64,000 bases of DNA from NCBI GenBank assembly GCA_019057385.1, contig JAHQJS010000006.1:517038-581037 (forward strand). The letters are read 5' to 3'. Position 1 is the stretch's first letter, and each line of letters starts with the position of its first letter. The notes below the pieces were generated by a model, which saw only the letters and a list, made by a program, of their open reading frames with translations, searched no databases and had not been told where the DNA came from. Source of the DNA: Candidatus Borrarchaeum weybense. GTDB taxonomy: Archaea; Asgardarchaeota; Sifarchaeia; Borrarchaeales; Borrarchaeaceae. The position numbers and the translations under genes are program-made. Below, piece by piece: positions 3,001 to 49,036 of the stretch.

Positions 3001-6000
3001 TTTTTTCCCAAGGAATGTGCGCCGTGAACTGTTCTTTAGTGAGAATGAAGCATTCATCAATTGTGAAAATTCCAGATTGTTCCAAGGCTTTTAGTTCCTT
3101 TTCATCAAATCCTATACTAAGAGGTATGGAAGTACCATACTTCATTTTTTCTTGCTGAATAGCTAAGGGATCTATCTGAATCTTTTTTCTCAACTGCACA
3201 ATCTCGTTGTCATTTACATTTGTTATTTCTTGTAAACTGCTTAATGGAGAAAGAATGAAGTGAATTATTGTCGTAATCCCATTTTTCAGTAATTTCTCTA
3301 CAATTTCAAGATGCTTTTTTAATGAAGGTAAAATTGTAATTGGAGCATTCAAAGTTTCTCTTATTTTGGAAATTAAATCAAGATCTGCACTATGATGTTC
3401 AAGCGTTTCATGTGGAGTGAAATATGCTTCTTCAATTGTATTAATACCCATTTTTTCGAGTTTCTTGAGGGTATTTGAATCTAGATCCAAAAAATTCAGG
3501 GGAGTTCCTTTTTGCTTATTTGAAAGAATTTCTTGCATATCTATTGAATCTTTTAGCGAATCTATTTCTTTTGAACTAATACCTAATTGTTCTAGTTCAT
3601 TTTTTGGCCAAATTAAAAAGTCAATGACCGAATTTATTCCAAATTGAGAAAGTAGAATCTTAGTATGAGGAATCACCCCTGGAAGTGTACCGATATGGGC
3701 GTCTAGGACATCATATATAGGCTTAATTTCTTTCCTTTTCGGATCATTAAGTACTTTAAGTAGCCTTGTTTTTGAGAAATAGAGATCTTCAATTGAAAAT
3801 ATATTGTGTGATCTAAATTCCTGCATTATTTCTTCACTAAAAAGCGCATCTTCAGATATTAAACTTTCAAAAGGCGTCCCGATATTCTTTTTTATTCGTT
3901 TAATCTTTGTAATTGTAAGTCCGTTTATTTTAGATAATTTCTGTACATCTGTAATAAGGAAATCATAGATAGTTCTAATACCTTCTTCTTCAAGGGCATT
4001 CTTGACATGAGGTTCTATCCACATCATTTCTGAGAGCGACTTTGGATGGGTACTATTAAGTTCCTGTACTACCTTTTCTTTAATGTATTGAATAATATTT
4101 GGAATTAAATCTTTGTCTCTTGCGAGATGGGAGTTTGGGTAAAGTAAAAAGTCAAGCTGTGTTAAGATTTTCCGTTTTGTAAACTTCTTATTGATACTTG
4201 ATGTATACCATTTAAATTGGCTAAGTTGTGGCATCCTTTCTTGAGAAATTTGAGCGATTAAATGTTTTTTAAAACTGTCAATGATTTTTAAAGCTATTCG
4301 ATCGATACTTTCGAGTTCATGGGTTGAGAATATGAGAAATTCAGAAACTGTACTAATCCCCATCTCTCTAAGTGAGTTTTCTATATAGTTATCCATCCAC
4401 TCAATTTCATGTATATCTATTTGATGGTCTTGGAAGATTTCCATTATCTTCTTTTTTTCGTTTTCAATCAAAATATGAATCAATTCAGTAACGAATGATA
4501 AATGTGAACTTGGTGTAATGATTAAATCAAGAATCGTGTGAATCTCCTGGCTTTTAAGCTTATTAAATAATTCTTGATCGATCCATGTGATCTCAGAAAG
4601 AGAAAATGAATAGTTCTTGTTTAGATTCTTAATGACATCCTGTTTTATGAAATTAATAAGTCTGATGTTTATTCCCGGAATTGAGGCAATAGTTTGATTT
4701 GGTGTCACTATAAAATCATAGATTGTCCTCATCCATTTCTTATTAAGATATACTTCAATTTCAGAGTCTACCCACTCTAACTGTGCGATACCAGGCGCAT
4801 CTGGGCTTTGTGAGAATATCTTTAGGTTATCACGTTTTACTTGTTCAACGCGATGTGGTGTAAATTTTTCTATTATCGTCAGTTCTTCAGTGGGTGTAGC
4901 TAAGAATTCAAATGCTGATTTGATTCCTATTTTTGATAATTCTTTTTTAATACCGGGATCAAGCCAGTAACCAACATGCGATATGGGTGAAGAGACTGGA
5001 TGTTTTCGTTCAATAATAAGTGGATACCCTGTCATTAACGCCTTTTCAATTTTCTTAGCTTCACTTGACAAATCAACAGGAAGAGTGGTCGGATCCTCTT
5101 GAGTGATTGCAAATAGATTTTGAAGAGTTATACTTGCCCATTTTTCAAATTGAGATGATCTTTTTCTCTCTCGGCGAGCACGCTCAATTCTTGAAAGAAA
5201 GATCCTTACTTGTCTTCCGAGGGCCTGAAGTGCCTTGGTGATTTCATCCCTAATTTCATCTACATCAGCAATATATTCTTTTGAAGTCTCAGGAAATGGA
5301 ATCTTAGTAGAAACAAGCGATACTGCAATGGCCAGAGGATTGTTATCAATATTTATTTTGTACGTTTTCCACTCGACTTCTTTATGAACTACTTTGGAAA
5401 TTACGTCATTCCCTGCACCAAAAAGTAATGGAATTCGATTTGCATATCGATAAATCGTCACACCACTCTTGAGATTGCCTCCGTAAGCAAGGGCAGCTTC
5501 AACAATAAAGGGATGTCCTGCATATGCTGATGCTGGCCGAGTAACTGCAGCAACGAATTCAGGATTGACTCTTTCCTTAAGTCCCTTTTCCAGATTTTCT
5601 GCTGTAAGTGGTGAGAGAGCTACCCCTTCAGGGCTTAAGAAAGTAAATTTTCTTTCAGTTTTTTCTTTTTCTTTTTTAATCTTTTTTTCATCAGGCTTTG
5701 ACTGCAAAAATCCGTCATGAATTATCCTTCGGATCTCTTCACTTGTTAGGTCTCTTGGGTTTTTATTAGGATCGACATTAACTAGTGAAAGAAATTGTTC
5801 TGCCTTTTTTTTACTAACACGTTGGAAATGACGCATCAAAAATTCAATCATATTAGTTGTACCTGTAATATGCGTCGCTGCAATTTCACGTTTTAGTTGA
5901 GTTATATCACATCCCCATGGATGTATCTTTGTGAGTTTTGGATAGGGCGGCATTTCATCAATAACACATTCATAAACGATTGGCTCTTCCTGATCTGGAG

Positions 6001-40680: not shown

Positions 40681-42060
40681 TCATTTTTTCACAATTATTA
40701 GGTCTCTTGGCTTAGTAACAGAACCCACGAAGAATATATTTTTTCGTATGAATTTCTTCTCTTCCTGAATTTCTCCTTTAATCCAATGACTGGCTAGCAT
40801 CTTGTTAATGACTCTTTTCAGCTGTTCTTCGCTGAAAACATTCGCCATTAATTCATTTAAATAGATCTGATGCTCTTGCTCTCTTGATAATTGCTTAAGA
40901 ATTTTTCTTATAATTTGTTCTTCGTCTGAATTCAAAGAGTACAAAAAATCTTCCAACAACTCTTTTTCGTTTACTACTTCCACGTTTATGCCTTCACGAG
41001 ATAACTGTTGAACAAGATTTCTGACAAAACTTGCGGATACGTTGTATTTCTTTGCTGTTTTAGAGAGCAGATATCGCCCCTTCTTTTTCAGCAGTTGTTC
41101 TTTGATTTTCGGCTTCGCGAAGTATTCCAATGTTCTCGCAATGAGACGCCTGGTTTCTTTTTGTGTGGTTTTACGTTTTAGTTTAGTCAATTTTGAAATG
41201 ATGTCCTTTTCCATATGAGGATAACTCTCGTAAATATCAATAACATACGCATACGCCAGTTCTCTTATTCTTTTTTCTTCGTCTTTAAAAAGCTCAAGAA
41301 TGAGAGGGGCAAATTCATCAACTTTTTCATTTTGCTTCTGAAGGATTATATTGATACAATTCATGGCAGAGAGTCTTACTTCAAAAAATTTCTCATTTAA
41401 TCCACTCTTTACCATGGGGAGGACGTCCTCTTTTAAAATATCTCTTGACCATAGTTGGCAAAATGCCCAAAGCCCTCCTTTTCTCATCCAAAAATCATCG
41501 GATTCCAATGCCTTTTTAAGTAACTTTTGCGCTTCATTTAAGTCCTCATCATTTTGCTGGAGATAATCAACAATTGCTCCAATTGTAAAGTATCGGGTCC
41601 AACTATCTTCGTTCTCCATTTGTTTGGCTAGAAGTTGAAAATCCGAGATACCCTCTTCGTCTTCTTGCATATATTGGGTTCTTAAAAGATCAAAAAACTT
41701 CTCCGCCGCTATATGAGGAAGATATGGGCTTTGAGATCCAATAGTTCCAAGCGCATAGAGAGCATTTTCTTGAACCTCTGCATATTTATCATTTAGGCTG
41801 GTTAAGAGCTTAGGAACCGCTATTTTAACCAGATTAGGCTCTTGTAAACCAATATCTCCCAGAACCCTTGCGATTGTAGCCCTTATGTAACTGTCATCAT
41901 CATTTAGAGTTTCTACGAGTTCTGGTATAACCTCCTTAATTTTAAGAGGATCCTCTTTTCCTATTTTTCCAATAGTCTGGGCAGAAATTCGTCGTTTTCC
42001 AACATCTTCATCAGAAAGTCCACTTAATAGTTCCTCAACATCACTTTTCAATTGATACAA
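40681..42060 (-). CDS. HEAT-repeat protein with a C-terminal PCI/winged-helix-like domain
   Basis: HEAT repeats (LNDDDSYIRATIARVLG); C-terminal LNEL....SEEQLKRVINKMLASHWIKGEI resembles a PCI winged helix. Confidence 0.75.
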   Translation of the reverse strand: MYQLKSDVEELLSGLSDEDVGKRRISAQTIGKIGKEDPLKIKEVIPELVETLNDDDSYIRATIARVLGDIGLQEPNLVKIAVPKLLTSLNDKYAEVQENALYALGTIGSQSPYLPHIAAEKFFDLLRTQYMQEDEEGISDFQLLAKQMENEDSWTRYFTIGAIVDYLQQNDEDLNEAQKLLKKALESDDFWMRKGGLWAFCQLWSRDILKEDVLPMVKSGLNEKFFEVRLSAMNCINIILQKQNEKVDEFAPLILELFKDEEKRIRELAYAYVIDIYESYPHMEKDIISKLTKLKRKTTQKETRRLIARTLEYFAKPKIKEQLLKKKGRYLLSKTAKKYNVSASFVRNLVQQLSREGINVEVVNEKELLEDFLYSLNSDEEQIIRKILKQLSREQEHQIYLNELMANVFSEEQLKRVINKMLASHWIKGEIQEEKKFIRKNIFFVGSVTKPRDLIIVKK

Positions 42061-42187
42061 CGTCCCTTGGCAAATTTTAAGTTTACATCACTCTACTTGA
42101 TAGGTAGATTTTCATTAGATCCTATGGTAAGTTAATTAGATTTACTTTTTTCTATTAAATTTAGTAAGTTATTCTTAAGGTGATAGG

Positions 42188-42430
42188 ATGAATATTTCAC
42201 GGGAGAAGATTCCGCAATTTCAGGAAAGGGAAGGTATTGCTCAAGACTTGAGCAAAGCATGGGAAAATCATTCAGATTTTTTGAAAAGATTCCCTTTTAG
42301 AAAAAATCCTGATTCCACCTAAGAATGACTAAAGAGAAACTTGGGAAGACAGGCTCTGAAGATTTTTTCTTTTATTGGCTGCAATACCCCCTAGGTTGGC
42401 TTGGGTTTTATACTGTTTGGGAAGCTCTGT
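42188..42430 (+). pseudogene. Broken gene remnant, possibly a McrB-like N-terminal domain
   Basis: GGTGA SD and ATG, then ..FLKRFPFRKNPD, stop/frameshift, TKEKL..GSEDFF, frameshift, YWLQY. Resembles the F...FP....lt.e....dsF.YWlE pattern from memory. Confidence 0.3.
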
Positions 42431-42475
42431 GAAAGATAATAGCGGGAAAAAGATTTTAGCGAAGATAAAGAAGAG

Positions 42476-43972
42476 TTAAATAACCTTTCTTAACCAATTG
42501 GTGAGATTGAAGAAATCTACGGCGTGCACATTCTTGTATTTTCTCACTAATGGGGTATATTTTGTCACGACACATGCAAATACTTTATATGTTTCTCTTT
42601 CACCGCTTATTGTGAGTTCTTCCTTAAATTTTTCAAAGTTATTTTTGAAAAATTCAACACGTTCTCGTTGTTTCAACATTTGATCTAGAAGTCTCTTTTT
42701 TTGCAGCAATTCCTGTTCTATGAGTGTCCATCCAGATATCGAAGATGGTGAAATGTCCCAATATTTTGCTTCCGCTAATACAATAGTCTTTTCGGTTTCT
42801 TTTATGGCAATTGCATCATACTCAGGACTATCTCTCGAAATTTTAACTGGTTTATCGGGAACGCTGTATCCATTTTCCGATAATAACTCTCTTACACGTT
42901 GCTCAAAGACCTTGGCGGCTTGTTGCTTTTTTTGTGCTATTGACTGTGAGGGATCATTCACATTTTCATCGTTTAAACCAAGAAGATGAAACAAAAGAAA
43001 TAGTATTGTACTAGGGTCGCAAAGGATTTGGTCTCCTTCTATTAGAACCAAAATTGGTGCCCTCGCTTTTGAAACCATATATTCGCGTAAAAAGGCATCT
43101 ATATCTAATCCATATTTTTCATAATTGAGTAAGTAACTTTTTATTCCATTTACCGTCCATTTACTCCTATTGGAAAAAAATAATCCAAGTAGCGCCGCTA
43201 TGTCTGCACTTGAAACATCATATTTAACTTGCTGTGCTGTGCGGTAATATAGACACAAAGCATATTTCGTGCGTATAATGTGTTCAAAAAATTGAACGAA
43301 GTATTTTTCAAGTTCCATGCCTTGTTCCAATTGAATATCCTCTCTTACTTGTTGATCTATTTCTGAATATCTAAATACGTCCTCAGTTATTCCAATAGAA
43401 CTACTAATAAGCCCCCAATTTCTAAGCATTAAAAATAAAGCATCCAAATACTTTATTTGAAAAACCTCATTGTCTGAGACCCTGATTAAACGACGTCTGT
43501 TTTCAAGGTCATCGATAAAATTTAATCTAGTCACATAATAGCTATATTCTTGTAATAAAGACTCAAAGTCTGGATTGGTATTGGAACGACCAATCGATGG
43601 AGAAATTGAATTGAGATCTATAAACATTTGATTTGTTGTGAAGAACTCATTTAGTATCATTCCTTTTCCTGCAAAAAATCCATCTATGAGTTTTTTACGA
43701 TAGGAAAAAATAAGAGTTTTCAGTATAGTCTCATTAAATTCTTTCATTTTGGCTAACAGGCTATTTTTCAGTTCATCGATTTCATTTTTTAACTTTTGTG
43801 CTCCTTTAACATTATAAAATTCAATTCCAACAGGAAAAAGGATGCATTTCGGATTTACACAAATTTCTTCTTTTGTGTTGAGTCCTAAATACAGTAAATG
43901 TTTACATTCTGTACATAGATAATCCGATATGGTCTCCATGATTTTATGCCATGGGTAAAACTCACTCACCAT
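42476..43972 (-). CDS. Hypothetical protein with an N-terminal Zn finger and a C-terminal PD-(D/E)xK (NERD-like) nuclease
   Basis: CTEC..CVNPKC; FEQRVRELL..GY...EYDAIAI...IVLAEAK. Confidence 0.75.
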   Translation of the reverse strand: MVSEFYPWHKIMETISDYLCTECKHLLYLGLNTKEEICVNPKCILFPVGIEFYNVKGAQKLKNEIDELKNSLLAKMKEFNETILKTLIFSYRKKLIDGFFAGKGMILNEFFTTNQMFIDLNSISPSIGRSNTNPDFESLLQEYSYYVTRLNFIDDLENRRRLIRVSDNEVFQIKYLDALFLMLRNWGLISSSIGITEDVFRYSEIDQQVREDIQLEQGMELEKYFVQFFEHIIRTKYALCLYYRTAQQVKYDVSSADIAALLGLFFSNRSKWTVNGIKSYLLNYEKYGLDIDAFLREYMVSKARAPILVLIEGDQILCDPSTILFLLFHLLGLNDENVNDPSQSIAQKKQQAAKVFEQRVRELLSENGYSVPDKPVKISRDSPEYDAIAIKETEKTIVLAEAKYWDISPSSISGWTLIEQELLQKKRLLDQMLKQRERVEFFKNNFEKFKEELTISGERETYKVFACVVTKYTPLVRKYKNVHAVDFFNLTNWLRKVI

Positions 43973-44397
43973 ATTTCAACATCCAAATTAAAAATGATAA
44001 TCTAGATTTCCATTAGTATATTCGTAATTGACTAGTAATATCGGTTTTTTTGTTTTCATTTTTTACTTGAAAGATTGAGTTTCATGTATAGACGATTGAT
44101 AACACTATAGAACAAAGATTTGTCGATTAATCTCGCTGCCTTTAAAGATCTTTATGAAACTATTTTTTTCTTGTTTCTTCTTCTGTATCTGACCATATCT
44201 TCCTAAAACATTCAAACGGATGGATAAAGGTTTTATGCACTTTTTTGTCATAGTTATCATTAGATTGAGGAGCAATAAAAGTAAAACAGCATTCCAGAAA
44301 AACGAGGATCAAAACAATGAGTAATCACCTAATGAACGTAAGCAAAAACTTGAACAATGAAAAACGGAAGAAATCCGGATAATTTTGTAAAATAATG

Positions 44398-45105
44398 CTA
44401 GATCTTTACAATATTCATCTCTCTTTTTCTATATATTTTCTTTTTCTCATATCTAAAAAACATTCCATATATAATAGAGCTTGCCACCAAAATAACAACT
44501 ATGATGATAATCATCCATAGAAGTGAAACGTAATCTGAGATCCACAACCAGTAAAGACTAAGAAACACCAAGATCAAACCCCAGAAGCGTCGTCTAAACC
44601 AAATCAAAAACCGTATTTTATGGCGTTCGATGTATGATTTTAAGAAGGTATGAATGCCGAACGTACTATCTCTTTGATAACTACTCATTTTGGTAATCCT
44701 TTTTTCAATACCTCGAACACGGGCATAAGCTATATCATCAAGACGCTTTGTTGTATAATGCACACCGAATAACCATATGGAATAAAGAAATATCGAGGCC
44801 AAAGCATCAACTAAATGAGTCTTATTCCCATTGCTTTTGATTAAAATTTCACTGAAAGTTTCACTAACAATAAGAAAGGCGGCAGCTACTAATATCGTTC
44901 CTACTACAAGCGTGATATTCTCCCTGCGCTCTATTTCATTATTTGTGCATTCATAATCTTTCAATAATACATCGATTTCGATATTCTGATTTTCATTAAA
45001 ATGATACTCGAATAAACTTGGTTTTCCAAACTCAAGTATCACGATATAGATCATTGAAAGAACAAATCCAATTACTGAAATCACAAATGTCCCCAAATCA
45101 GACAC
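44398..45105 (-). CDS. Multi-pass membrane protein of unknown function
   Basis: About 5 hydrophobic segments; Y.....EI.RR..TM..TM..R...IEK layout. Confidence 0.65.
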   Translation of the reverse strand: MSDLGTFVISVIGFVLSMIYIVILEFGKPSLFEYHFNENQNIEIDVLLKDYECTNNEIERRENITLVVGTILVAAAFLIVSETFSEILIKSNGNKTHLVDALASIFLYSIWLFGVHYTTKRLDDIAYARVRGIEKRITKMSSYQRDSTFGIHTFLKSYIERHKIRFLIWFRRRFWGLILVFLSLYWLWISDYVSLLWMIIIIVVILVASSIIYGMFFRYEKKKIYRKREMNIVKI

Positions 45106-45182
45106 AGAATATCCCCCAGCCTATTAATGGCATTTGTCTAAAATAAGTCTGCTTGTAATAAAAAAAACTTAGTATCTTTTAA

Positions 45183-45329
45183 TTAGAGTGCGTTTTCTTT
45201 TAACCATAGCCGGATAGCTTCTTCAACGGCTTTACTTAAATAACCTCTTCTAAGACCGAATTTTTTCACTCCTTTTTCACGTAATTGTTGTTCAAGGTCA
45301 TCTGGTATGGACACGCTAATACTTCCCAT
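45183..45329 (-). CDS. Ribbon-helix-helix regulator, divergent from the RAMP operon
   Basis: MGSISVSIPDDLEQQLR....FG..RG.LSKAVEEAI..WL, with a GGTGA SD. Confidence 0.85.
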   Translation of the reverse strand: MGSISVSIPDDLEQQLREKGVKKFGLRRGYLSKAVEEAIRLWLKENAL

Positions 45330-45516
45330 GCTATCACCTTGTGGACCTTTTACAGGTAGCCTTTTCATGTTTCACATATACTTTATACTATAAAACAAAC
45401 ATTCTTTTCCTTTAAAAGTATTATTATTCCACACAAAATATATAAGATAAAAGATATATGTTATAATAGATTTCTGGCAAACTAAGAGATGCTAGAAAAA
45501 TCGCGAGGTTGTAAAC

Positions 45517-46350
45517 ATGAAACAAACAAAAAAACAGATCGTGATTCGTGCCTATACACCCATAGCTAAACCTCTCAATGCGTCTATTCAAAAAAATGCA
45601 ACTATGCTTCTCCTCGGCGAAATTCCCTATGAGAATGGGTCAAAAGTATTCAATACTAAACTTTATTACATCAAAGGTGTACGTGGGATGCTGAGACATG
45701 CTTGTATGAAGTTAGCTCAGGCTTGCGGTATTGAAGTGTGTCATAGCAGTGAAAAAACGGAACTCAAAGACGGAACTAAACTTATTTCTTCGGGTTTTCA
45801 TCCGCTTGGTGCATGCAATCCTCCGTGTATTCTCAGGCGCCTTTTTGGTACCTTCCGCGAAGAGTCCTCGATTTCTGTCTTGGTTGATCCTATCGCCTCT
45901 ATCAGGCATAAAGAATATACTACTGAGGTAGTTGTTCAAAAAGTTCATATCTCCAGCGAGAATAGGATTGCCCTTGCCTATGATCGAACTCCCATTCAAG
46001 ATTTTCGTGAAAGCTATTTCAGTGGTTATTTTAGCTTCTGTATTGACGTAACCACTTTAACTGATGATGAAATCAAGTTTCTCATGGAATCACTGCTCTA
46101 CATTGAGATACTTGGTGGTGGCAAAAACGCGGGTTATGGGCGTGTCAAAATTCTGGATTTCGAAGTCCAGAAGATTGGTATCGTAAGAAACATCGAGAGA
46201 GATAATGGCGCCTACAAAATTAGTGAAAAAACTGAAGTGCAACCAATACTGCTTGAAAACATCGAGGAGTGGAGGACTGCATATATGGGAGAAAATTTGG
46301 CAGCGGTCGAACAAGAACAAATCTCTGCCCTAGTTAGTGATAAAAAATGA
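45517..46350 (+). CDS. Cas7-like RAMP-superfamily protein
   Basis: IKGVRGMLRH, Zn-type C-H..C...C.L.RLFG, thumb ENRI...FRE, and C-terminal glycine-rich loop LGGGKNAGYGRVKI. Confidence 0.85.
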   Translation: MKQTKKQIVIRAYTPIAKPLNASIQKNATMLLLGEIPYENGSKVFNTKLYYIKGVRGMLRHACMKLAQACGIEVCHSSEKTELKDGTKLISSGFHPLGACNPPCILRRLFGTFREESSISVLVDPIASIRHKEYTTEVVVQKVHISSENRIALAYDRTPIQDFRESYFSGYFSFCIDVTTLTDDEIKFLMESLLYIEILGGGKNAGYGRVKILDFEVQKIGIVRNIERDNGAYKISEKTEVQPILLENIEEWRTAYMGENLAAVEQEQISALVSDKK

Positions 46351-47150
46351 CAAAAAACTGGATAAAATTATCGGGTATAACTAAAACACCTGTTGTAAGC
46401 AAGAGAAAACGTTTTTTTCATAAATACGGTGTAATTACTATTAATGGTCGTCCTAGAGCATTTGGTAAACTTACAAAAGGAGAGAAACGCGCTCCTATGA
46501 CATTTAGAGCTAGATATGGAACAGTAGAGTTCGTTGTTCCACAGTCTAAACTTGAGCAAGCATTCACTGTTGATACCATCGGGAGATATACCCATGAAGG
46601 AATGGGGCAAATTGTCTGGAGAAGTGTGAAGCACCTCCAAAAAAAGCCCCTCTACGCTCCAAGAAAAATTAAGATTCGTAAAATGCTTCCCAAACTCTCA
46701 GATGCACAGAAAAATCTACTAAAAGCCTTTCTTTTACATGATTTCGTGCATACCGAAAAGCATCGAAGTAAAATCTACAATGAGATTGACATAATTGATG
46801 AAGAAGTTTACAAATTAGCAAAAAATCATCATAATTACAATTTTGACGAAAGAGAATTGCCTCTCCTCTCTACCCTTCACTATTATGATCGCCTTTCCGC
46901 GATGATTTCTCGAAAATTCAGATGGTCTGCCTCCTCGCGTTATCGTGTGAATGTTCAAAAGGAAATAGATTTCGATATGCTAAAAAGAGAGATAGAATCA
47001 CGCCAATATTCTCTTTGTGCCCTTTATGGTTATGTGTACAAATCTTGTGTACTTAACAAAATCAATGAGGCGCTAAAATTTGGTTTCTCTTCTTTGAAAA
47101 ACCATCTCTTATTAATGGTTAATCTCTATATTGATGACTTTCATAGGTGA
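46347..47150 (+). CDS. Cas5-like RAMP domain fused to an HD-family nuclease domain
   Basis: N-terminal glycine-rich loop IGRYTHEGMGQI; C-terminal LLHDF..H...HH..YDRLSA. ATGA overlap with the cas7-like gene. Confidence 0.75.
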   Translation: MTKNWIKLSGITKTPVVSKRKRFFHKYGVITINGRPRAFGKLTKGEKRAPMTFRARYGTVEFVVPQSKLEQAFTVDTIGRYTHEGMGQIVWRSVKHLQKKPLYAPRKIKIRKMLPKLSDAQKNLLKAFLLHDFVHTEKHRSKIYNEIDIIDEEVYKLAKNHHNYNFDERELPLLSTLHYYDRLSAMISRKFRWSASSRYRVNVQKEIDFDMLKREIESRQYSLCALYGYVYKSCVLNKINEALKFGFSSLKNHLLLMVNLYIDDFHR

Positions 47151-47330
47151 GCCCATATGCTTCAAATCATGATATTGGTATTCCTCTTTGCAGGCAAATA
47201 CACTGGATACAAGGCGGAATGTTCTTCGCACCACGCGGAGAACACGTTCTTGTGCATGAGACTGAACCCGAGAGGTCCCACGCCTCAGATGAAGGGAATG
47301 AATGACAGGCAGAGGACGAGAAAAGTGATA
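47151..47330 (+). ncRNA. Candidate structured RNA directly downstream of the Cas5-HD gene
   Basis: GC-richer than its flanks. 10-bp hairpin TGTTCTTCGC/GCGGAGAACA (47220-47244) extended by ACAAG/CTTGT, a CC-GAGA-GG tetraloop, and an outer stem TCCTCT/AGAGGA (47182-47187 with 47311-47316). Confidence 0.5.
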
Positions 47331-48292
47331 AGCCTTAGTAACTTGTTTATTATCTTATCTGCTGTTCGTGTGTCTTCTGGATTTTCTTCAACGACATCTT
47401 GGTTCAACTCAAATGATGGCAAATTTGCAAGTACAGCTACGATACTTATTATACTTTGTTTTGCGACCCAAAGATTAGATCCTCCACTTAATAAGACTAC
47501 GAGGTTATCATCACAGCTATCTTTAGCTGCTTGTGTGATTATTTTAGCCATTTCAGGAAATGCAGAGGTCGTCAAGTTGAAACCGCCATAATCCGCGTGA
47601 TGGGAGTCATGCCCAAAATTCCACAAAATCATTTCAGGCCCGAATTTTTCGGCAAGGAATGGAGTTAGTTCTTGTAAAACTCTCAGAAAGCCTTTATCAG
47701 AGATATTTGAGGGCAGAGGGATGTCAAATTTATTGGATTTTATTAAATCGTCACTAAATGAATAGCCATCGGAAAAAAAGTTTAGATGTACCACATTTTC
47801 GTCACTCTCAAAAATATTCCGTGTGCCATCTCCTGGATGGGGATCTGTGTCGATTATCATGAATCGTTTGACATTGTAAGTGTTTCTAAGATGTTGAATA
47901 AGTAACGCAGAATTGTTAATGTAGCAAAAACCCCAATATGAATTACGACTTGCATGATGCCCAGCAGTTCCAGTAAAAACAAAGGAATTTTTTACTTTCT
48001 TCGTCCAGACCATTTCTCCTGCCAGTAAAGCTCCTCCCGCTGACAGCCGTGCGGCCTCATAACATTCATCTTCTTTGACTCTTGCAAGATGTTGCGTAGT
48101 ATGTATTTGAAGAATTAATTCTTCTTTTACTCTCTCAGGTGTTTGAATAACTACTCTGTTGTCTCGGTCGTTTTCTTTTAGAAAATCCATTAAAGAATTG
48201 TATGCGGGTGCTAATCTTTCTCGTAAAAAGAGATTTCCATGCGTTGCAAACTTCGGGTGATAAATCAAGCACGTCTGGGGCATTTTAATCAA
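47285..48292 (-). CDS. Histone deacetylase (Rpd3/HDA/AcuC-like Zn amidohydrolase) family protein
   Basis: AGHHA, WGFCYIN, IDTDPHPGDGT, NFGHDSH..D; the usual EGGY appears as SGGS. Confidence 0.88.
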   Translation of the reverse strand: MIKMPQTCLIYHPKFATHGNLFLRERLAPAYNSLMDFLKENDRDNRVVIQTPERVKEELILQIHTTQHLARVKEDECYEAARLSAGGALLAGEMVWTKKVKNSFVFTGTAGHHASRNSYWGFCYINNSALLIQHLRNTYNVKRFMIIDTDPHPGDGTRNIFESDENVVHLNFFSDGYSFSDDLIKSNKFDIPLPSNISDKGFLRVLQELTPFLAEKFGPEMILWNFGHDSHHADYGGFNLTTSAFPEMAKIITQAAKDSCDDNLVVLLSGGSNLWVAKQSIISIVAVLANLPSFELNQDVVEENPEDTRTADKIINKLLRLITFLVLCLSFIPFI

Positions 48293-48349: not shown

Positions 48350-49036
48350 CTAATCTTCGATTAGCCTTTTTGTCATCAACATCTTTTCTAAAAGTTTGAT
48401 ATCTAGTTGTCTCGGAATTACTTTATTTTTTATAGCATACACCATCACACTATCATCAATTTCTTGCGCAACCAATACTCCGTAAACTTCATCGACTAAA
48501 ATGTAACTAGAACTCAAATCTACTCGACCTCTTTCTTTTATACTCTTCACATAATCCAGTATTTGATCCACGTCCTCTTTTTTAGGTTTTGTTTTCTTAA
48601 GTTCGATAACAGCCAGTTTGTTCATGGGATCTTGGGCTAAGATATCAATCCTCTTACCTTCTGATAGAGTGACTTGTCGACCCAGCACTCGATAATTCTC
48701 ATAAATAATCCCTGTCAATAAGGTTGGGTATTCTGCTAGAACTTTCTCTATATCTAATTCTGTGAAACCTTCAGTCTTGATATTGAAAGGTTCAAGATTT
48801 ATCTTATAAATTCCTTTCAACTGTTTTGCTCTTTTTATATATTCCCTTGCATGCTCATAACATTCATCGTAGAGTTTACTGTCCACTCCCATTTCCATTA
48901 TTTGAGTCAATGTTTCTGCAGCCTGCAAATAAAGTCTAATAGCTGTTTTTTTGTCGCTTTTTTTGTCGACCTCGATTGCTTTTTCTGCTGTTGATTTTGC
49001 TGTCTTTAACAGCTTTGAGATTTGGTTTTGAGACAT
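48350..49036 (-). CDS. MIT domain fused to a NucS/EndoMS-like PD-(D/E)xK nuclease domain
   Basis: A...A.KAIEVDK....AIRLY..AAE.L...EYIKRAKQLK (MIT); E..IE..L...P...GRQ..L..GKRIDIL..D....VIELK...Q..DY. Confidence 0.82.
   Translation of the reverse strand: MSQNQISKLLKTAKSTAEKAIEVDKKSDKKTAIRLYLQAAETLTQIMEMGVDSKLYDECYEHAREYIKRAKQLKGIYKINLEPFNIKTEGFTELDIEKVLAEYPTLLTGIIYENYRVLGRQVTLSEGKRIDILAQDPMNKLAVIELKKTKPKKEDVDQILDYVKSIKERGRVDLSSSYILVDEVYGVLVAQEIDDSVMVYAIKNKVIPRQLDIKLLEKMLMTKRLIED

Follow-up and report, generated by a model that had tools for sequence, protein, structure and literature searches.

What do a Cas7-like protein and a partner bearing an HD nuclease domain do in an archaeal gene neighborhood that holds no CRISPR array? 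The question is posed by a small cassette in the genome of Candidatus Borrarchaeum weybense (G000), which we analyzed within a 64-kb stretch of contig C6, referred to here as the window. We find that this locus is a reduced, Cas1-less member of a known and uncharacterized family, ARAMP (Asgard RAMP); more precisely, it is a variant of ARAMP that lacks Cas1, is linked to a gene for a probable ribbon-helix-helix (RHH) protein, and retains a single RNA gene. That RNA is a conserved, structured scaffold whose 3' end coincides with the right border of a strain-specific island carrying the cassette.

ARAMP was catalogued by Makarova et al. (2020, CRISPR J 3:156) and is described here as summarized in PMC8730458 and PMC12669027. 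Like the HRAMP of Haloarchaea, it is array-less, derived from type III systems, and typically found with nucleases (PMC12669027), HNH and PD-(D/E)xK being the most frequent ones associated with ARAMP (PMC8730458, PMC12669027). Most ARAMPs, not all, carry a distinct Cas1 (PMC8730458), and the published view holds both HRAMP and ARAMP to be defense systems whose mechanisms are distinct from CRISPR (PMC8730458, PMC12669027). An earlier, sequence-only reading of the window correctly pointed to Asgard RAMP systems of this sort and proposed a two-protein RNA-guided HD nuclease effector. The pair is not a self-contained novelty; it is a cut-down version of a family present in many copies, and the fuller versions also include a helicase-Cas1 protein and two RNA genes. 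The cassette comprises the following features, and its three open reading frames were confirmed at the positions given.

45183-45368, minus strand: probable RHH regulator, a 61-amino-acid open reading frame divergent from the RAMP gene (sub-threshold RHH_6 match)
45369-45516, no strand assigned: divergent intergenic region with TATA-like AAAATATATAAG at ~45437-45448 read in its sequence, a presumed promoter
45517-46350, plus strand: Cas7-like RAMP (the ARAMP Cas7), 277 amino acids (Pfam RAMPs, PADLOC Csm3, AlphaFold2 with Foldseek)
46347-47150, plus strand: P2, a small RAMP/RRM (Cas5-like) domain fused to a Cas10-type HD domain, 267 amino acids (AlphaFold2 with per-domain alignment)
47201-47333, plus strand: scaffold RNA (RNA-2), the sole copy in the window (nhmmer, covariance model, covariation)

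Several lines of evidence identify the RAMP as Cas7-like, as had been proposed. It matches Pfam RAMPs at 30.8 bits (cut-off 22.1) and PADLOC Csm3 at 3.4e-8, and an AlphaFold2 model built on 37 homologues (pLDDT 85.4, pTM 0.81) returned 202 Foldseek matches in the PDB at E<=1e-3, every one of them Cas7-type, headed by the type VII Cas7 8yhe_E (1.4e-8) and followed by Csm3 and Csf2. The motifs singled out earlier are borne out by the 37 homologues, among which the Cys/His cluster (C75, H76, H95, C100, C104) and two glycines of the LGGGKNAGYG loop (G200 and G206) are invariant; a role of the cluster in zinc binding is putative.

Its partner, which we name P2, has no Pfam match, and its sequence matched nothing meaningful among solved structures. 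The AlphaFold2 model of P2 (pLDDT 84.5) falls into two parts, and although a whole-protein Foldseek search gave no match at E<=1e-3, alignment of each domain separately was informative. Residues 118-267 resemble the N-terminal HD domain of Cas10/Csm1 (6ifk_A, Z 8.1, root-mean-square deviation 3.4 A over 136 aligned residues; 6mua_A, Z 6.8), and residues 1-104 resemble RAMP/RRM subunits of class 1 effectors (Z 5-6.4). A weak PADLOC match to Cas5_IIId (E 5e-4) accompanies these alignments, which do not separate Cas5 from other RAMPs. Residues H131, D132, H139, H161, H162, D181, and H253 are invariant across 42 homologues. Both proteins thus show the folds predicted for them, including the fusion of a short RAMP to an HD domain. 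A contact between RAMP and P2 is also predicted: the pair has an ipSAE of 0.62, and the best control scores 0.00. Among reference cases, 58 of 80 complexes of solved structure attain that mark, as do 2 of 110 mismatched pairs. At least 77% of the contacts recur between runs, with a partner pLDDT of 75 or more, and the glycine-loop face of the P2 RAMP domain (residues 8-95) is placed against the RAMP; the score may mirror likeness to Cas5-Cas7 complexes that have already been solved.

The regulator is less secure. Its reading frame is present and adjoins the cassette in three contexts (the window and the metagenome contigs L027/L028 and L029/L030, which carry orthologous cassettes from close relatives), but the RHH_6 match behind its name (E 7.5e-4, 20.5 bits) lies below the cut-off of 27. 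The true start is probably an internal Met at 45329, giving 48 amino acids; in L027 a 47-amino-acid form alone is open. Ratios of nonsynonymous to synonymous substitution (dN/dS) against the orthologues are 0.19 for RAMP, 0.21-0.32 for P2, and 0.34 for RHH, which indicates that all three genes are maintained under purifying selection.

As the sequence-only reading held, the 64-kb window contains no CRISPR array and no cas1, cas2, cas6, or cas10, and genome-wide searches for Cas1, Cas2, Cas6, and Cas10 placed no match on the window part of C6; the Csm1 model for Cas10 found nothing across the genome. The sole canonical CRISPR-Cas system of the genome is a complete type I-B locus on another contig (C4:148433-162446; L025, L026), where the genome's only array, with at least 49 repeats at a period of ~76, lies alongside Cas1, Cas2, Cas4, Cas8b, Cas7b, Cas5b, Cas3', and Cas6. 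The two window proteins are not components of this locus, which has its own Cas5, Cas7, and Cas6.

The window instead has the features of ARAMP, namely an Asgard host, a diverged Cas7-like RAMP, no adjacent array, and an associated nuclease in the form of the HD domain; Cas1, missing from the island and from the window, is not obligatory in the published wording. Homologues of the window RAMP and P2 occur in Asgard assemblies only, those with names coming from Promethearchaeota, Borrarchaeum, Sifarchaeia, Heimdallarchaeota, Hodarchaeales, and Thorarchaeota metagenome-assembled genomes. A whole-genome search with the RAMP family found 11 RAMP-like genes in G000, and BLASTP recovered 11 RAMP-P2 pairs, 64-79% identical apart from a single pair at 43%. 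Six or seven of the 11 copies have a gene of ~1330 codons directly upstream on the same strand (for example C4:747834-751826); its product has an N-terminal DEAD/Helicase_C helicase, to which at least two copies add a Cas1-like domain at the C-terminus (PF01867, 36.5 bits). The fuller form reads helicase-Cas1, RAMP, RNA, P2, RNA. Across the phylum, P2 homologues were present in 17 of 201 sampled genomes, often in multiple copies and with many fragments, a patchy distribution of the kind expected of mobile DNA. In a RAMP tree, the window copy, L027, L029, and locus a of the same genome, all without Cas1, form one clade with 98/98 support.

Three other copies in the genome have features of their own. 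Locus a, the closest paralogue of the window cassette and likewise Cas1-less, is followed by a gene for an 857-amino-acid type IIG-like restriction-modification protein (N6_Mtase plus HSDR_N; L015:11820-14390, G000:C4:1004819-1007392), and fragments of the same family flank the locus. At L017:9223-15667 (G000:C4:523222-529666), a 1337-amino-acid NACHT/STAND-type protein takes the place of helicase-Cas1, and P2 is split in two. The divergent pair at L024:8631-10275 (G000:C5:80630-82274), with identities of 43% and 35% and overlapping genes, has its nearest homologues in Hodarchaeales/Heimdall, and the scaffold profile detects no RNA near it.

In the other copies of the genome, the gap between RAMP and P2 measures 254-525 bp and holds a strongly conserved element of ~135 nt. 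An nhmmer profile built from eight such gap copies, with the window copy left out, found 25 copies in the genome, typically one between the two genes (RNA-1) and one just after P2 (RNA-2). Its match in the window lies directly after P2, at 47207-47331 (88 bits, E 7e-25), and a covariance model (CM R1) built from a single genus extends this single copy to 47201-47333 at 141 bits, while detecting 21 copies in one same-genus genome. The consensus fold of a 24-copy alignment comprises 28 pairs. In helix 1, compensatory two-sided change is seen at 8 of 9 pairs, including G-U intermediates; 97% of alignment cells are paired, compared with 39-48% when partners are slid, and none of 500 shuffles reached the observed level of covariation. 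The remaining helices are invariant and hence uninformative on this point. No Rfam family matches the scaffold, and folding of the single sequence gave a z-score of -1.07. Small open reading frames called 3' of P2 in other copies overlap the element and are probably non-coding. The sequence-only reading had ended the locus at 47330, thereby taking in the structured RNA without naming it, and had described such systems as having no demonstrated guide; that description now needs updating to include a conserved scaffold RNA, with RNA-guided activity of the HD nuclease a conjecture still.

Putative signals for transcription accompany several copies, in which TATA-like boxes precede the scaffold and hairpin-plus-T terminators follow it. 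Window positions 45258-45473, in the region of the presumed divergent promoter, have an 85%-identical counterpart at C4:562618-562831, and there the same promoter stands immediately before a scaffold RNA on its own. This solo unit (G000:C4:562618-563050) consists of the 5' half of an RHH pseudogene and the promoter, then the scaffold RNA, with neither RAMP nor P2, and closes with a ~45-nt A-rich tail and a hairpin-plus-T terminator; it could supply RNA in trans to the window cassette, which is short of one RNA gene. In full copies, a stretch of 39-48 nt that lies 33-83 bp upstream of the cassette's own RAMP start recurs, at 85-97% identity, in the tail of the inner RNA. An example is L020:10775-10813 versus L020:9713-9751 (G000:C4:422779-422817 versus 421712-421750; 97% over 39 nt), and loci g, h, i, and b/e behave likewise. 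The repeat includes a TATA-like GGTTTATATC, so duplication of a promoter to serve P2 explains it as well as a guide directed at the promoter of the cassette itself does. The RNA-1 tails of L027 and L029, compared with their own loci and with the window, gave only chance 9-13-mers. A 48-nt repeat upstream of another copy (L016:4018-4065) proved to be a palindromic hairpin unrelated to the scaffold; this perfect-stem repeat (ATTCTACCTGAAA...TTTCAGGTAGAAT) occurs in several copies per genome in this genus, at many sites in genomes G000-G004.

The features of the island and of its junction with host DNA are as follows.

42092-47334, no strand assigned: strain-specific island of 5.24 kb, between a HEAT-repeat gene (40681-42060, minus strand) and the 3' end of the HDAC gene
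42476-43972, minus strand: island cargo, 498-amino-acid orphan with a Cys-rich (zinc-ribbon-like) N-terminus and a PD-(D/E)XK-like C-terminus (weak Pfam support)
44398-45105, minus strand: island cargo, 235-amino-acid predicted membrane protein of no family, with no paralogue in the genome
47285-48292, minus strand: HDAC-family gene with its native C-terminus replaced (Pfam Hist_deacetyl, 2.5e-51)
47335-47395, plus strand: putative variable 3' RNA tail, which is host DNA antisense to the last HDAC codons (homology to empty sites starts at 47335)

Occupied and empty versions of this site both exist. Two same-genus genomes, G004 and G002 (stretches L041 and L033, respectively), join window position ~42091 straight to ~47335-47340 with no island between, and an independent soil-metagenome contig (X4 record 17), ~97.5% identical over the flanks, joins 42091 to 47335 by ATCTT. 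The island is present on contigs of X2 and X3, two runs of the source study; its contents are the 498-amino-acid protein, the 235-amino-acid membrane protein, RHH, RAMP, P2, and the RNA. At the right border, the scaffold ends at ~47331-47333 and host homology starts at 47335, so the 3' end of the RNA is the border of the island. The HDAC gene records the event: orthologues in G004 and G002 match residues 1-324 only, and the empty-site DNA of G004 encodes the native ending KLLKDVT followed by the stop, whereas the last ~14 codons of the window gene (ITFLVLCLSFIPFI*) are translated from the antisense of the scaffold RNA, at 47285-47330. Because empty sites keep an intact HDAC C-terminus, the empty state is ancestral and the window carries an insertion; the island entered the 3' end of the HDAC gene after the split from the ~97.5%-identical relative. 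An RNA tail, if there is one, would run antisense to the HDAC mRNA at its 3' end.

The 498-amino-acid protein has a weak Pfam match to DUF234 (E 0.008), and its feature neighbors hint at NERD/Hjc nuclease folds, a lead only. A search of 200 other genomes from the phylum with this protein as the query gave no homologue at E<=1e-5, and it was rejected as a regular companion of ARAMP.

The coincidence of RNA end and insert border recurs in a relative. In L027/L028, where the DNA is 86-91% identical, the order is RHH, RAMP, a 292-bp gap with RNA-1, P2, and RNA-2, and the cassette sits between MIT-NucS and amidohydrolase genes that are adjacent in the window, where that site is empty. The last scaffold base in L027 is 3890, and host DNA resumes at 3894 (window 49033); ACATTT(T) stands on both sides of the insertion, a possible duplication. 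The L029/L030 cassette lies in a third genomic context. These orthologues also show how the window copy was reduced. Each has a RAMP-P2 gap of 281-292 bp holding an RNA gene, and the window lacks any counterpart of L027:2600-2891 or of the corresponding part of L029.

46330-46333, no strand assigned: scar of a ~290-bp deletion that took RNA-1 (alignment blocks stop at 46329 and resume at 46334)

This deletion accounts for the 4-base ATGA overlap that RAMP and P2 share in the open reading frame list. The overlap from which translational coupling had been proposed is thus real, but it is a derived state rather than the arrangement of the orthologues.

Two neighboring observations concern these insertion sites. 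Window 48350-49036 (minus strand) encodes a 228-amino-acid fusion of an MIT domain (ESCRT-linked, eukaryote-like) to NucS_C/PD-(D/E)XK, with a PADLOC match to the candidate defense family PDC-S11 (4.8e-14), and the L027/L028 cassette is inserted immediately beside the start codon of this MIT-NucS gene. At G004:C54:9775-9889, which corresponds to the site of locus b in G000, there is no cassette, and a degenerate scaffold (50.9 bits) adjoins the palindromic repeat; the site resembles what a deletion would leave behind, in which case cassettes are lost as well as gained.

How might these parts work together? The reading we favor, held tentatively and at slightly less than an even chance, is that the window encodes a Cas1-less ARAMP ribonucleoprotein, mobile or recently so, that is guided by flank sequence. 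The RHH protein would control the operon, and the Cas7-like and Cas5-HD proteins would form a complex on the scaffold RNA, which would serve them as a long 5' handle. Transcription of the RNA would run into the host flank, its 3' tail spelling the sequence next to the insertion, and the complex would recognize that sequence where no scaffold adjoins it, which is to say an unoccupied site. The HD domain might cut the empty site, or the complex might mark it for the helicase-Cas1 of the six or seven full copies. The outcome would be homing, maintenance, or targeted insertion, as with transposon-encoded omega-RNA nucleases, and the window cassette would represent, in non-autonomous form, a mobile family addressed by RNA. 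A more far-reaching proposal is that ARAMP cassettes as a whole are such a family, with scaffold tails taken from the flank leading the Cas7/Cas5-HD complex to the matching unoccupied site, where, together with helicase-Cas1 provided in cis or in trans, it would drive homing or insertion, and that the window represents a non-autonomous, Cas1-less lineage still relocating; this we consider possible but doubtful.

Supporting the flank-guided reading, the scaffold 3' end is the insert border in two independent insertions, the window and L027. A number of observations weigh against it. The transcript, its ends, and its contact with protein are predictions, and the tail equals the host flank by position alone, as any read-through would give, and so is not evidence of guiding. 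The putative tail at 47335-47395, whose first T-runs fall near +12 and +50, matches the rest of the genome by chance stretches of 14-17 nt, never by 18 nt or more. No strong TATA box precedes the window RNA, and of the usual pair of RNA genes this copy keeps a single one. Since an integrase is missing from the island, any movement would depend on factors supplied in trans or on some other route. Neither a target-site duplication nor a terminal repeat turned up consistently, the window showing a 5-bp loss; the left end of the island has nothing in common with its counterparts in L027 and L029, and comparison of the island left end, the inner intergenic regions, and the L027 left end with the genome revealed no shared terminal sequence. 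The scaffold model found nothing in four genomes of other Asgard families with a diverged P2, although absence is not shown by a model drawn from one genus. Finally, the homologue alignment has no invariant acidic residue in the N-terminal 50 residues of RAMP, so Csm3-type cutting of target RNA is not expected.

One alternative is an innate, HRAMP-like defense module that has no programmable guide, or whose RNA is structural or regulatory (for example, in autoregulation with RHH), carried on a horizontally gained defense island. We judge this unlikely, while recognizing that it follows the published view of HRAMP and ARAMP as nuclease-linked defense operating by a non-CRISPR mechanism (PMC8730458, PMC12669027), that the island cargo includes an orphan PD-(D/E)XK-like protein as well as a membrane protein, and that the upstream repeat in inner RNA tails fits autoregulation or a duplicated promoter. 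Arrayed against it are the twofold coincidence of scaffold end and insert border and the finding of 11 copies per genome with many fragments and solo RNAs, which fit mobile DNA better. The position of the ~130-nt element exactly at the right border could also mean that it acts as DNA, a structured end or attachment site for helicase-Cas1 or the RAMP proteins, resembling the hairpin ends of single-strand transposons; its RNA nature is likewise deduced from sequence, and the folding z-score of just -1.07 is in keeping with this idea. Yet full copies hold a second, internal copy between the genes rather than at an end, several copies lie between an upstream TATA-like box and a downstream hairpin-plus-T terminator, the solo copy lies directly behind a copy of the RAMP operon promoter, and the covariation passes through G-U intermediates, which pair in RNA and less well in DNA. 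We find a DNA role improbable.

We give similarly little credence to the proposal that the cassette is a decaying, functionless remnant. It has indeed lost helicase-Cas1 and one RNA gene, the RNA-1 region having been deleted, and many broken copies exist in the genome and in relatives, but dN/dS is 0.19-0.34 for all three genes, every invariant HD and RAMP residue is kept, and the Cas1-less clade is found in several organisms at different sites, with an insertion that is recent. The presence in the genome of the 49-repeat C4 array and a full I-B gene set including Cas6 raises one more alternative, in which the two proteins would be loaded with type I-B crRNAs as an accessory effector. This is very improbable: the I-B locus has its own Cas5 and Cas7, each of the eleven ARAMP modules has its own conserved RNA, the scaffold is by eye unlike the I-B repeat, and no arrays were found on the ARAMP-bearing contigs of relatives.

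Since 2020, ARAMP has figured among the derivatives of CRISPR as an enigmatic, array-less case without known RNA or mechanism. The summaries in PMC8730458 and PMC12669027 mention no RNA component, insertion borders, or positional polymorphism of ARAMP; relative to them, the scaffold RNA and the exact borders of the insertion are new here. An RNA partner, exact borders, and naturally occupied and empty sites make the mechanism of ARAMP directly testable. The system is small, with two proteins of ~270 amino acids and one RNA, and if the tail guides, it would be a very compact RNA-guided nuclease of class 1 type. Should the flank-guided reading be true, it would bear on the links among Cas1, RAMP effectors, and mobile DNA in archaeal relatives of eukaryotes.

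The window cassette can be compared with several known systems. With ARAMP it shares the host group, a diverged Cas7-like RAMP of type III ancestry (beside a small RAMP that may be Cas5-like), the lack of an array, and a nuclease domain, and its sister copies carry the distinct Cas1; it differs in having an RHH gene instead of Cas1 and, as nuclease, an HD domain fused to a small RAMP rather than HNH or PD-(D/E)xK. HRAMP (Makarova et al. 2019, FEMS Microbiol Lett 366:fnz079, as cited in PMC8730458), compared by description only, is likewise array-less, combines diverged Cas5 and Cas7 homologues with nucleases, and has a predicted function, but it belongs to another phylum, has no link to Cas1, and has no reported RNA or island border. 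Type III (Csm/Cmr) and type VII effectors have in common with the cassette the Cas7 fold (the best matches being type VII Cas7 and Csm3), an HD domain like that of Cas10/Csm1, and presumably a layout in which a guide comes after a 5' handle. In contrast to them, the window has no Cas10 palm/cyclase, Cas11, Cas6, array, or beta-CASP Cas14 (island proteins gave no Pfam match to metallo-beta-lactamase/beta-CASP), its HD domain resides on the Cas5-like subunit, and its "handle" would be ~130 nt as opposed to 8 nt.

Among mobile systems, casposons and CRISPR-associated transposons (CAST) also link Cas1 or CRISPR effectors with mobile DNA. Casposons carry PolB and make ~14-15-bp duplications; neither these hallmarks nor the Tn7 transposases and mini-arrays of CAST occur in the window island. 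The OMEGA systems (TnpB/IscB, IS200/IS605) use single RuvC/HNH effectors unrelated to the RAMP and HD proteins, and membership of the cassette among them is excluded by the lack of a RuvC-type effector domain in the island proteins. They are nonetheless alike in outline, in that a long scaffold RNA lies at the end of the element and a guide is read beyond the border, as we propose for the window. If the RNA tail does guide the complex, the flank-read guide logic of transposon omega-RNAs would have a second and independent example here. If, beyond that, ARAMP cassettes as a whole are the RNA-addressed mobile family considered above, they would be a class 1-derived counterpart of omega-RNA/TnpB and an instance of Cas1-linked, RNA-guided DNA movement outside Tn7.

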